Numbered from the stretch's first letter, positions 9,487 through 15,621 are shown. The stretch: DNA of 16,989 bases from a virus (IMGVR_UViG_2778261502_000004:1-16989), one strand, 5' to 3'. The notes: generated by a model not told the origin, from the letters alone. Made by a program: numbers and translations.

Positions 9487-9576
9487 ACAATATGTACCTC
9501 CGGTGTACATATTACATGATTAAAATGAACCTTCAAGATACTTGTACCTTAACGGTACAAGGGTTTTAATTTCGTT
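9487..9576. promoter_or_regulatory. Divergent immunity control region with two 19-bp palindromic operators and candidate pR and pRM promoters
   Basis: Operators ATGTACC-N5-TGTACAT (9492..9510) and TTGTACC-N5-GGTACAA (9542..9560); minus-strand promoter TTGAAG (9531..9536) / 16 bp / TAATAT (9509..9514); plus-strand TTTAAT at 9565..9570 lies just before the cI ATG, suggesting a leaderless cI message. Confidence 0.55.
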
Positions 9577-10251
9577 ATGAAAACAATCCATGACATCCGG
9601 CGGTCTAACGCCAGAAAACTGAGAGATGGTGTTGGCGGGAATTCTTCCTTTGCCACTATGATTGATCGCGAGCCAACCCAGACCAGCAGGTTTATGGGAG
9701 ATGGTGCTACTAAAAATATCGGTGACAGCATGGCACGACACATCGAAAAATGTTTCGACCTACCTGTCGGATGGCTCGATCAAGAACACCAGACAACGAA
9801 CATCACAAAAAAACCTGATGTTTCAATCACTAATAAACAAATCACATTAGTCCCTGTCATATCATGGGTACAGGCCGGAGCATGGAAAGAAGTTGGATAT
9901 TCTGAGGTTGATTTGAGCACAGCAGAAACGTATCCCTGCCCTGTACCCTGTGGGGAAATGACTTATATCTTGCGGGTGATAGGTGATTCAATGATTGATG
10001 AGTACCGCCCGGGAGACATGATTTTTGTCGATCCTGAAGTACCTGCCTGCCACGGTGACGACGTTATTGCATTGATGCACGATACAGGTGAAACCACCTT
10101 CAAAAGGTTAATAGAAGATGGGACACAGCGTTATCTCAAAGCGTTAAACCCAAACTGGCCTGAGCCTTACATTAAGATCAACGGTAATTGCTCTATAATT
10201 GGTACAGTGATTTTCTCAGGAAAACCAAGAAGATACAAAATCAAAGCCTAA
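9577..10251 (+). CDS. CI-type prophage repressor: phage-CI HTH N-domain plus LexA/S24-type autocleaving C-domain
   Basis: 224 aa; N-terminal ...GDSMARHIEKCFDLPVGWLDQ; C-terminal domain with Ser in VIGDSM and Lys in TFKRL, the S24 catalytic dyad context. Confidence 0.9.
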   Translation: MKTIHDIRRSNARKLRDGVGGNSSFATMIDREPTQTSRFMGDGATKNIGDSMARHIEKCFDLPVGWLDQEHQTTNITKKPDVSITNKQITLVPVISWVQAGAWKEVGYSEVDLSTAETYPCPVPCGEMTYILRVIGDSMIDEYRPGDMIFVDPEVPACHGDDVIALMHDTGETTFKRLIEDGTQRYLKALNPNWPEPYIKINGNCSIIGTVIFSGKPRRYKIKA

Positions 10252-10263
10252 TCAATGTTTATG

Positions 10264-10288
10264 AACCTGCTTCGGCAGGTTTTTTTAT
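10264..10288 (+). terminator. Rho-independent terminator after cI
   Basis: AACCTGC-TTCG-GCAGGTT stem-loop followed by TTTTTT. Confidence 0.8.
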
Positions 10289-10290
10289 AC

Positions 10291-10323
10291 TTGACAATGT
10301 ACCTTTGAGATACATAATGTACC
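10291..10323 (+). promoter_or_regulatory. pL-like early-left promoter with overlapping operator
   Basis: TTGACA (10291..10296) / 16 bp / CATAAT (10313..10318); operator ATGTACC-N5-GATACAT at 10297..10315 with the same 7-5-7 layout as the cro–cI operators; extra half-site ATGTACC at 10317..10323. Confidence 0.65.
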
Positions 10324-10409
10324 CAAGAGAAACAACGAACAGGCAGGACGCCCACGAAGTAGCCGCCTGGGGCATATGAAGTCCAGGATGATTCGTTAGC
10401 AACAAAAAA

Positions 10410-10440
10410 GCGCCCTACAGGACGCTTAGCTCTTTAACAA
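10410..10440 (+). promoter_or_regulatory. Candidate antitermination site: short hairpin followed by an rrn-type boxA
   Basis: GCTCTTTAACAA (10429..10440) matches the core of the rrn boxA consensus TGCTCTTTAACAA; preceded by hairpin GCGCC-CTACA-GGaCGC (10410..10425); located in the 5' leader downstream of the pL-like promoter. Confidence 0.5.
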
Positions 10441-10485
10441 TCTGGTCCCCATCAACAAGTAACTGATAACTTGAGGAGATGTGAA

Positions 10486-10692
10486 ATGCACAAAACAGAA
10501 CCCAAAATCGTCGCGCCTGGCTACACAGATGAGGAAATTTATGAGTGGATGACAAAGAAGCTGGCAGCTATAAACCAGCTTCGTGAAGTGCTGTCTTATC
10601 GACAGGAAACAATAGACTCCTTAAAAAAACTGGATCAGGAAATCACGGTTTTATCACAGGATGTTACTTTAGATATTGTGCAGACAAATTAG
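10486..10692 (+). CDS. Small hypothetical protein, first gene of the pL-like transcript
   Basis: 68 aa MHKTEPKIVAPGYTDEEIYEWMTKKLAAINQLREVLSYRQETIDSLKKLDQEITVL... ; GAGGAG RBS 7 nt upstream; not Arg-rich, so not an N-type antiterminator. Confidence 0.55.
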   Translation: MHKTEPKIVAPGYTDEEIYEWMTKKLAAINQLREVLSYRQETIDSLKKLDQEITVLSQDVTLDIVQTN

Positions 10693-11098
10693 GATCCCAT
10701 TCATTTTCGTCAAAATCATCAAAGTGATGAATTTGTGATCTCCAGTCTCGATAATCTAAAAATTTCTGGGCGGTTACGCTTATTTTATCAAGTGTGAGTT
10801 CATCCTGAATTGAAAGAAGAAGTTCATCAAATTTCATCTCATTAATCTGTTTTGGCATCCAGTGATGCTTCATCAGAATAAGGTGAACCAGAGCCTTTTT
10901 CCCATTCAACTGATTATAGGGAGTGCCGAATTTCTTCCGGTGCTCATGTAAGACAAGGTCCAAAAGAGTAAGTAATGTTGCCCTTGATTCAACTTTGCTT
11001 ATTTCGACTGATGACACTACCCCACTGATTTCAATGCCCCGATACTTTCCAACATTTTCACAGTGGGATTTGTACAGCGTATAGATATTACCGGACAT
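10664..11098 (-). CDS. Hypothetical protein on the opposite strand, AT-rich, 3' end overlapping the 68-aa gene by 29 bp
   Basis: 144 aa MSGNIYTLYKSHCENVGKYRGIEISGVVSSVEISKVESRATLLTLLDLVLHEHRKKFGTPYNQ...; AAGGA-like RBS; soluble; no family recognised. Confidence 0.55.
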   Translation of the reverse strand: MSGNIYTLYKSHCENVGKYRGIEISGVVSSVEISKVESRATLLTLLDLVLHEHRKKFGTPYNQLNGKKALVHLILMKHHWMPKQINEMKFDELLLSIQDELTLDKISVTAQKFLDYRDWRSQIHHFDDFDENEWDPNLSAQYLK

Positions 11099-11113
11099 TT
11101 CTTTTCCTTTTGC

Positions 11114-11162
11114 GTTGTTGGGGATAACCAGATTAACCGAATCCTTGTTGTTGGGGAATAAC
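11114..11162. repeat. Two direct repeats just upstream of the 144-aa gene start
   Basis: GTTGTTGGGGATAACC (11114..11129) and GTTGTTGGGGAATAAC (11147..11162), 17 bp apart. Confidence 0.5.
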
Positions 11163-11382
11163 TAGGTCCACCTCGCCTGATGTGGCTAAAAGCAGGCACA
11201 TAACAGCTAAGTATTTTCAACCAGAGAGAATCCTTAGCGTTGTGGTGAATGCGGCTCAGCGCACGCGGGTTAAGGTTGAGGCTGACAGTCGACCTTCTGT
11301 GGATACCCACCCGCCTGGTGTGCAACCTTCGCCAGGCACCGGGAGGCACCCGGCACCACAACTTTATGCTGTGTGTAGTCTT

Positions 11383-11429
11383 GGCGGTACCAGCTTGTAC
11401 CCTTGCTTCCGGCTGGTACCGTCCTTTTT
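11383..11429 (+). terminator. Strong rho-independent terminator inside the early-left leader (tL1-like)
   Basis: 10–12 bp GC-rich stem (CGGTACCAGC / GCTGGTACCG), 17-nt loop, then TTTTT. Confidence 0.7.
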
Positions 11430-11431
11430 AC

Positions 11432-11516
11432 AAAACAGAGAAGAGCATCACCGGACGACGGGCTCATAACCCAATCCATCCGGGCGGCAGTCACCGCAGG
11501 TGTTCTTCTCTGTTTT
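11432..11516. repeat. 16-bp inverted repeat enclosing a GC-rich ~53-nt segment, right after the terminator
   Basis: AAAACAGAGAAGAGCA (11432..11447) versus TGTTCTTCTCTGTTTT (11501..11516), one mismatch. Confidence 0.5.
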
Positions 11517-11566
11517 GTGGAGAAACTAACCGACCTTGCAGGGTCGATATGATGAGGAGCAGCAAA

Positions 11567-11929
11567 ATGGCTAGCGAACGCAGTACTGATGTGCAGGCAT
11601 TTATCGGGGAGCTGGACGGCGGCGTATTTGAAACCAAAATCGGCGCAGTTCTCAGTGAAGTCGCTTCCGGTGTGATGAACACGAAAACCAAAGGTAAGGT
11701 CTCGCTCAACCTGGAAATCGAACCGTTTGATGAGAACCGAGTGAAAATCAAACACAAACTCTCATATGTTCGCCCGACTAACCGCGGGAAAATTTCCGAA
11801 GAAGACACCACCGAAACGCCGATGTATGTCAATCGCGGTGGTCGCCTGACTATTCTGCAGGAAGACCAGGGACAGTTACTGACTCTTGCCGGTGAACCTG
11901 ACGGAAAACTCCGCGCAGCAGGTCGTTAA
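11567..11929 (+). CDS. yfdP: YfdP-like early-left prophage protein
   Basis: Likely start ATG 11567 with GAGGAG RBS, 120 aa (the ORF track extends it upstream to 11249 without support); size and position match yfdP of the CPS-53 yfdP–yfdT cluster as I recall it. Confidence 0.55.
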   Translation: MASERSTDVQAFIGELDGGVFETKIGAVLSEVASGVMNTKTKGKVSLNLEIEPFDENRVKIKHKLSYVRPTNRGKISEEDTTETPMYVNRGGRLTILQEDQGQLLTLAGEPDGKLRAAGR

Positions 11930-15545: not shown

Positions 15546-15621
15546 TGGTGCCGATAATAGGAGTCGAACCTACGACCTTCGCATTACGAATGCGCTGCTC
15601 TACCAACTGAGCTATATCGGC
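15546..15621 (-). tRNA. thrW: tRNA-Thr (anticodon CGU), the attachment tRNA
   Basis: Reverse complement reads GCCGATATAGCTCAGTTGGTAGAGCAGCGCATTCGTAATGCGAAGGTCGTAGGTTCGACTCCTATTATCGGCACCA, 76 nt with CCA end and anticodon loop CATTCGTAATG. Confidence 0.97.

Follow-up and report, generated by a model that had tools for sequence, protein, structure and literature searches.

In phage lambda, PL, nutL and N occupy the entry to the early-left operon. What holds this position in a lambdoid prophage whose operon opens with yfdP? We addressed this question for positions 11099-11566 of IMGVR_UViG_2778261502_000004:1-16989, a stretch of 16,989 nucleotides (nt; hereafter the window) from an SfV/SfIV/e14-like lambdoid prophage of E. 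coli. This 468-nt segment matches many E. coli chromosomes at 100% identity and phages Kati and SfIV at 97.7-99.8%, and is most likely the distal part of the long, untranslated leader that heads the early-left operon (yfdP, yfdQ ... xis, int). We read it, with a probability of about 0.7, as a small RNA and a transcription barrier within this leader, the small RNA part being a variant, new in sequence, of a small RNA already known from prophages. An earlier note, made from the sequence alone, had described the segment as structured and GC-rich. This description holds: the GC content is 0.53-0.61 compared with about 0.40 in the flanks, and the folding energy of 11236-11570 is -150.6 kcal/mol, against -117.3 +/- 5.2 for shuffled sequences (z = -6.4; 0/100 shuffles as good). 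The features that define the predicted RNA are as follows.

11240-11361, + strand: structured RNA domain of the STnc100/PasD/sRNA-17 type, 122 nt, pseudoknotted
11240-11247 with 11354-11361, + strand: helix P1
11251-11255 with 11261-11266, + strand: hairpin P2, with bulged A11263 and loop UCAGC
11272-11278 (AAGGUUG) with 11323-11329 (CAACCUU, in the P4 loop), + strand: pseudoknot
11313-11320 with 11330-11337, + strand: helix P4
11339-11353, + strand: hairpin P5, CCGGG-AGGCA-CCCGG
11337-11358, + strand: near-invariant 22-nt core CACCGGGAGGCACCCGGCACCA
11362-11384, + strand: single-stranded linker, delimited by sequence comparison
11385-11429, + strand: intrinsic terminator, with stem CGGUACCAGC/GCUGGUACCG, a 17-nt loop and tail UCCUUUUU

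The earlier note had proposed an RNA family search and a covariance analysis as checks, and both were carried out. A permissive Rfam search over 801 nt aligned 11209-11432 with positions 1-206 of the STnc100 model (RF02076) at 43.4 bits (E 5e-8). Both conserved STnc100 blocks are present (GGUGAAU at 11244-11250 and the 22-nt core), and the STnc100 helices of the segment are also recovered by minimum-free-energy folding. Rfam scans for known ribozyme or riboswitch families gave nothing above noise. A covariance model built from our own family alignment (R1) scores the segment at 93.1 bits and finds it to be the sole copy in the window; a search of the late region with R1 for a second domain copy gave none. 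The same slot in other phages is matched at 92 bits in ST64B, 92 in phiES15, 50 in Kp4866 and 27 in mEp460.

Covariation was counted on 28 representatives. In the domain, 90.9% of the cells are paired, compared with 75% in shuffles (0/500) and 42-47% when the partners are slid. Compensatory changes occur in 18 of the 26 domain pairs, with P1, P2 and P4 covarying; in the segment's own P2, GCGGC/GC-A-CGC, every change from the usual CCCCC/GG-A-GGG is compensated. Counting the pseudoknot on the MAFFT alignment was impossible since its register differs among subfamilies, and a matched-versus-mismatched test was used instead: across 51 distinct helices, strands are more complementary to their own partners than to cross-family partners (p ~4e-8). 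The common architecture consists of P1 (UGGUG/CACCA plus a covarying extension), the junction AAU, P2, a pseudoknot strand, a variable insert, P4, and P5 (CCGGG-AGGCA-CCCGG) stacked on P1. At least 120 viral contigs contain an exact copy of the 22-nt core, with 109 different contexts around it.

The closest described counterpart is sRNA-17 of E. coli K1 strain RS218, a 193-nt RNA from an mEp460-like prophage, established by 5'/3' rapid amplification of cDNA ends (RACE) and Northern blotting (Sun et al. 2020, PMC7719688). The supplementary alignment of these authors shows sRNA-17 from GTTGTGGTGAATGCGCAGG to ...CTGGTACCGCTCTTTT (PMC7719688). We mapped it by means of this alignment and phage mEp460, where the aligned sequence is L004 2856-3048, exactly 193 nt comprising the domain, linker and terminator. 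From the size and the alignment, sRNA-17 would begin at the initial base of helix P1 and end in the U-run of the terminator. Its counterpart in the segment is 11239-11429, with identical ends and a different interior, and the segment RNA is the positional homolog of sRNA-17. Both lie upstream of yfdP, on the yfdP strand, in lambdoid prophages, and both are matched by R1. They share an architecture of GUUGUGGUGAAU..., the structured domain, CACCACAAC, a linker and the GGCGGUACCAG terminator. The first 15 nt and the last ~60 nt (CACCACAAC and terminator) are nearly identical, whereas the interior is replaced, leaving ~65% of columns identical; the differences lie in P2, the pseudoknot and the P5 loop (CCGGG-AGGCA-CCCGG in the segment, CCGG-AGAUCAGCA-CCGG in sRNA-17), and the linkers also differ. 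Control by ArcA and the reported phenotypes are features of sRNA-17 (PMC7719688), which its authors stated to be without an Rfam homolog (PMC7719688).

The segment RNA is accordingly predicted, on sequence grounds, to consist of domain, linker and terminator (11239/11240-11429) and to measure 190-191 nt, next to the 193 nt of sRNA-17. The earlier note had suggested a small RNA gene ending at the terminator, which the full-length STnc100 match and the positional homolog sRNA-17 support; its estimate of a ~250-nt transcript gives way to ~190 nt.

STnc100, PasD1 and PasD2 of enteropathogenic E. coli (EPEC) share with the segment the full-length model match, GGUGAAU, the CACCGGGAGGCACCCGGCACCA core, the helices and a terminator behind them; they differ in P2, which is GCGGC/GCACGC in the segment instead of CCCCC/GGAGGGG, a compensatory difference. 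STnc100 copies are expressed in EDL933, one of them verified by Northern blotting. EcOnc27 is described as Hfq-binding, and PasD1/2 were picked up by ligating and sequencing interacting RNAs (RIL-seq) on Hfq and depend on Hfq for stability. The portion available of the preprint linking PasD to STnc100 makes no mention of sRNA-17 or of a pseudoknot. The 3' half of the segment RNA (linker, hairpin and U-tail) would resemble that of an Hfq-type small RNA, in agreement with RACE-mapped sRNA-17 and with Hfq-bound PasD and EcOnc27. sRNA-17 of meningitis E. coli, STnc100/PasD of EPEC and enterohaemorrhagic E. coli, YmfH of e14 and the dicB leader of Qin, treated separately in the sources consulted, have one pseudoknotted domain in common.

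Within the linker, GCUGUGUGUAGUCUUGG (11368-11384) is conserved across genera, Salmonella, Klebsiella and Cronobacter among them, and occupies the place that would be expected of a small-RNA seed; a search of the whole window for its target returned the self match only. The terminator had been called strong in the earlier note, and its end at 11429 stands; its start has been corrected from 11383 to 11385, where a perfect 10-bp stem begins (11385-11394/11412-11421), followed by TCCTTTTT up to 11429. A consensus terminator scan missed it, as the scan allows loops of up to 8 nt and this one has 17. The stem covaries across genera, while GGCGG...CCGCC and the U-run are fixed. In many relatives (L318, L334, L340, L328, L003, L005), the terminator loop upstream of the yfdP homolog carries a conserved insert, ...CUUCC...GGAGGA(A/U)GA(A/U)GAUAAUGUUCUG..., which contains a Shine-Dalgarno-like sequence and an AUG; it is absent from the segment copy.

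A terminator/antiterminator switch, which the earlier note had offered as another possibility, was rejected after nascent-RNA and constrained folding. In the nascent RNA nothing upstream pairs with the 5' arm of the terminator, a fold that is denied the terminator is 17 kcal/mol worse, and the terminator and the long hairpin downstream of it coexist with pair probabilities of ~1.0 each.

The small RNA and barrier reading places the domain far behind its presumed promoter, and three features of the leader bear on it.

10263-10282: terminator of the cI-like gene
10291-10318: promoter TTGACA-16-CATAAT, directly after the terminator, near-consensus and the only good one
10408-10427 and 10429-10440: a hairpin, then rrn-type boxA GCUCUUUAACAA (GCTCTTTAACAA), a 12-nt match to the boxA of rrn operons

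Overlapping the promoter, which is ~920 nt upstream and was missed by the earlier note, are ATGTACC motifs resembling the TGTACC...GGTACA repeats found between the cI-like gene and the cro-like gene (9487-9576), and 10263-10325 is likely to hold the early-left promoter and operator. The boxA lies ~105 nt downstream of this putative promoter in a phage with no N-like gene, which suggests antitermination of the leader by host Nus factors. It would protect RNA polymerase from Rho along the ~1.2-kb, largely untranslated leader, where a single small unverified open reading frame (ORF; 10486-10692) is found. Early-left transcripts would then cross ~900 nt before the domain is transcribed. Many of them would stop at 11429, and a start or a cut at ~11239 would yield a stable RNA of ~190 nt; trimming from the 5' side would reach the end protected by P1, in which the 5' end is locked. 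The terminator would also act as a barrier, keeping expression from yfdP to int low unless the polymerase reads through, and the read-through RNA would carry the long hairpin, a likely processing or translation-control element for yfdP.

A published result may be explained in cis by such a barrier: replacement of sRNA-17 by a cassette raised yfdP 95-fold (PMC7719688), as loss of the terminator could do.

Several points weigh against this reading. The STnc100 score of 43.4 bits is below the curated gathering threshold of 47 bits, and a gathering-mode Rfam scan of the whole window had no match at the segment. The RNA of the segment's variant is a prediction, and its interior differs from that of sRNA-17, with 139 of 215 aligned columns identical. 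The 95-fold rise came from a cassette-replacement strain, in which read-out from the cassette could also explain it. No sigma-70-like promoter was detected just upstream of 11240 or in the 11104-11161 region on either strand, even at relaxed thresholds, so the 5' end would have to arise by processing, or from a promoter that is weak or depends on an activator. Repression of the early-left promoter is expected in a lysogen, but untreated cultures contained sRNA-17. A simple small RNA or barrier leaves the near-invariant core and the pseudoknot unexplained. Some relatives have no terminator and stand directly before a gene (Qin dicB, Buttiauxella yfdP), so that the domain must have some action of its own.

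How the family is distributed bears on these last points. Most members have Q-like antiterminator genes (or stx2B) on one side and holin or nanS-p genes on the other, often with a sigma-70 promoter placed for a start a few nt before P1; late-region relatives with the same core score 52-208 bits against Rfam STnc100. The segment copy differs from this usual late place (from Q to lysis/stx/nanS-p) in lying between the immunity region and yfdP, and belongs to a second group located inside early-left operons. A hairpin with a U-run follows within 130 nt in 130 of 170 unique family contexts (76%), the U-run at a median of 56 nt after P1. Some members form tandem arrays of 3-4 copies, in which the STnc100 match takes in the terminator stem. 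We observed four and three full STnc100 elements in tandem (L016 2265-3380; L024 342-1038), in late regions of viral contigs, beside tRNA genes.

Such arrays, each copy matching the full model including the terminator stem, are among the arguments for the foremost alternative, which we hold to be unlikely: that the domain is a cis-acting sensor, riboswitch-like or a host-factor site, tuning termination or translation before toxic phage genes (holin, kil, dicB, early-left), with the small RNA as a by-product. A near-invariant core among highly variable helices together with a pseudoknot would suit a sensor, as would the position of members before a terminator or directly before a gene, like the expression platforms of riboswitches, and always in 5' leaders of operons whose leak would harm. 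However, the terminator takes part in no mutually exclusive structure; the linker that separates it from the domain varies and has no complementarity to the domain; no ligand or factor is indicated and no Rfam riboswitch matches; and the relatives are small RNAs, abundant and associated with Hfq, that have trans targets.

Downstream of the terminator, a second conserved RNA element reaches nearly to the start of yfdP.

11430-11518, + strand: long hairpin, outer stem of ~19-25 bp
11451-11455 with 11479-11483, + strand: inner stem CCGGA/UCCGG
11459-11472, + strand: hairpin tip CGGGCUCAUAACCC, the same sequence as the anticodon stem-loop in E. coli initiator tRNA-fMet
11484-11497, + strand: side hairpin GCGG-CAGUCA-CCGC
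11519-11566, + strand: conserved GUGGAGAAACUAACC, a small hairpin (11529-11548) and the Shine-Dalgarno sequence GAGGAG of yfdP (11554-11559)

The earlier note had recognized the outer stem as a 16-bp inverted repeat. The repeat is real and longer than described, with 25-nt arms (11430-11454/11494-11518) that are 84% complementary; that the long hairpin is a separate conserved element had escaped the note, as had the pseudoknot in the domain. On A2 (17 sequences), 93% of cells are paired compared with 88.5% in shuffles (0/500) and 37-51% with partners slid, and 11 of 33 pairs of the long hairpin are compensatory. The element is kept upstream of yfdP homologs in many genera of Enterobacterales, with GACGGGCUCAUAACCCAAUCC as its most conserved interior block. 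We found no report of it in the literature. A long hairpin before the first early-left gene recalls the RNase III site in the lambda N leader.

The match of the tip to tRNA-fMet is exact over 14 nt and extends to 17 nt with 1 mismatch, scoring 29 compared with 13.3 +/- 2.2 in shuffles (0/2000); the tRNA sequence was checked against annotated tRNA-Met genes, four per genome. The tip has the marks of this initiator tRNA, namely three G-C pairs and the CUCAUAA loop. Only the 3-bp stem and the loop are common to both, whereas the flanks differ. Variants CUCAUUA and CUCAUUC occur in some lineages, Providencia, Scandinavium and e14 differ, and some members are without the motif. The tip is placed just upstream of a ribosome-binding site, as is the tRNA mimicry of the thrS operator in an mRNA leader. 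An actual tRNA was considered and rejected: neither ARAGORN, which detects only the tRNA-Thr at 15546-15621, nor the Rfam tRNA model, searched over 10900-11700 at E up to 10, finds a cloverleaf or a match. The 21-nt motif GACGGGCUCAUAACCCAAUCC also recurs in a different hairpin of an unrelated, GC-rich phage contig (L250, ~10400-10700), upstream of a tRNA-like sequence and a module of YqaJ exonuclease and RecT.

It is doubtful, and ranks below the sensor, that the tRNA look-alike and the domain core are decoys or sensors for core host machinery. The look-alike could engage a partner that recognizes tRNA-fMet, such as the 30S P site, methionyl-tRNA synthetase, or anticodon-loop nucleases, e.g. 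the VapC toxins of Shigella and Salmonella. If true, it would protect or time the early program of the phage. If functional, an initiator-tRNA anticodon arm copied at the point where a phage early operon begins would be a new kind of phage-host RNA mimicry. The look-alike and, discussed below, the connection to ymfH of K-12 and to the leader of dicB are what appear to be new in our reading.

The position at the head of a long operon also invites comparison with HK022 put and with the lambda nut/N leader, which likewise are structured RNAs heading early operons; the boxA upstream extends the likeness, while the segment's phage is without an N gene and no boxB-type pairing partner was identified. 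A put-like RNA that binds RNA polymerase and reads through its own and later terminators, replacing the N protein, is nevertheless improbable. From the early-left promoter to yfdP there is no N-like gene, and in promoter-bearing relatives the domain starts a few nt from the predicted start site, as putL does. But neither BLAST nor the covariance model finds similarity to HK022 put (HK022 21.0-32.5 kb), and put has ~70 nt and two stems compared with 100-140 nt and five helices in the domain. Most members lie downstream of Q antiterminator genes, which already give read-through; the terminated RNA accumulates in cells, and the upstream boxA offers an alternative route.

Least probable is a protein-coding segment, either YmfH-like (11182-11469 or 11242-11552) or the start of a long, 226-aa YfdP from 11249: there are a 226-aa ORF in the yfdP frame and a 95-aa ORF, and coding sequences (CDSs) are annotated as SfIV_34/35, as ymfH in K-12 e14 and as a PGAP 'frameshifted' pseudogene, but a comparison of frames in the segment, ST64B, mEp460, Kp4866 and phiES15 led to its rejection, every frame being interrupted by stop codons or 1-nt indels (a frameshift is needed in ST64B, whose upstream open frame is out of the yfdP frame; phiES15, mEp460 and Kp4866 have stops), with substitutions in the helices compensatory and the sole 'conserved peptide', GRHPAPQ, being the translated invariant RNA core. 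That no ORF here looks like a protein, as the earlier note had held, is thus sustained, and since no frame is conserved, the CDS calls SfIV_34/35, the PGAP pseudogene and K-12 ymfH are very probably wrong; all three can be flagged as likely mis-annotations.

The equivalent slot, from the repressor region to the first early-left gene, is used in ST64B, mEp460, phiES15, e14 and Qin, and is non-coding in ST64B, mEp460, Kp4866 and phiES15. E. coli K-12 carries two early-left copies, those of e14 and Qin, which provide genetically easy test beds for a family abundant in pathogens. The e14 copy (76.9 bits) is covered by the annotated CDS ymfH, which in a K-12-like strain (L347 2380-2693) spans all three RNA parts (domain, terminator and long hairpin); this copy has mutations in its P5 loop and in its tRNA-like tip, with xisE immediately behind. 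Over-expression of ymfH triggers the retron-Sen2 toxin in a published screen, and this might be an effect of the RNA.

The Qin copy (L346 3883-4110; 72 bits) fills the gap from the DicF terminator to the start codon of dicB. Its P5 is compensated (CCUGG/CCAGG), and its P1 is lengthened to ~20 bp by GUGAAUUUUGUG/CACAAAAUUCAU. Like the segment, DicF/Qin combines an early-left operon under repressor control with a small RNA ending at a GGCGGUA(U/C)CAG...CCGCC terminator; the order in Qin is reversed, with the DicF terminator first and the domain second. The linker and terminator weakly resemble DicF (19.4 bits, E 0.15, in the segment and 28.5 in e14, compared with 76.7 for true DicF). The segment was rejected as a DicF RNA (RF00039), its 19.4 bits standing against a cut-off of 48 and the DicF seed sequences not being conserved.

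The R1 model has no match in phage lambda. A sequence between tR' and gene S of lambda, at 44.84-44.96 kb (L230 1040-1160), reads GTGCTCTTTCCGTTGTGCTGAAT...CCGGAAGCAGAACCGG...CAGCACAAC and resembles a reduced copy of the domain behind a boxA-like GCTCTTT, though it is not scored by the covariance model.

The remaining features of the locus are listed below; the gene layout from ymfT to the ECs1072-family gene is taken from annotated relatives.

cro-like ymfT, - strand
9577-10251, + strand: cI-like ymfK
between ymfK and the ECs1072-family gene, + strand: small ORF
10664-11098, - strand: ECs1072-family gene
11104-11128 and 11139-11161, + strand: two degenerate copies of the motif at the 5' edge of the domain (GAAUCCUU..GUUGUGGUGAAU), repeat families D1/D2, identified by eye
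11168-11205, + strand: 38-nt block with 97% identity in Cronobacter phage phiES15 (BLAST)
11567-11929: yfdP, with its ATG at 11567, followed by yfdQ, further genes, xis, int and tRNA-Thr
15546-15621: tRNA-Thr (ARAGORN)

The two direct repeats reported earlier are present, although weak (17-18 nt at 76-78% identity). By eye, a 25-nt motif recurs in three degenerate copies (11104-11128, 11139-11161 and 11228-11252), the third being the true 5' edge of the RNA domain; the copies within 11104-11161 are probably recombination scars. They lie directly upstream of the - strand ECs1072-family gene, for which no promoter was found even at relaxed thresholds. TAAC/GTTA repeats at 11124-11204 depart from 11-bp phasing and are, by eye, unconvincing as an ArcA site. 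By BLAST, blocks overlapping 11168-11205 also match Klebsiella and Hafnia phages, and comparison with Kosakonia (L337) shows that the 38-nt block includes a truncated look-alike of the 5' end of the domain, AUGUGGCUAAAAGCAGGCA.

The ECs1072-family gene and the presumed early-left transcription converge, which would make the leader RNA antisense to this gene; the gene is absent from ST64B and SfV and resembles an inserted moron. ST64B (L003 2665-2730) shares the opening ~60 nt of what is presumed to be the early-left transcript (CGAACAGGCAGGACGCCCACGAAGTAGCCGCC...GGATGATTCG; 10330-10400), and has a further 350 nt of GC-rich leader with a terminator-like hairpin of its own (~2905-2950). ST64B and mEp460 also carry a C4 antisense RNA and isrK, both above the Rfam threshold, upstream of Rha/antirepressor-like genes (L003 409-597; L004 324-512).

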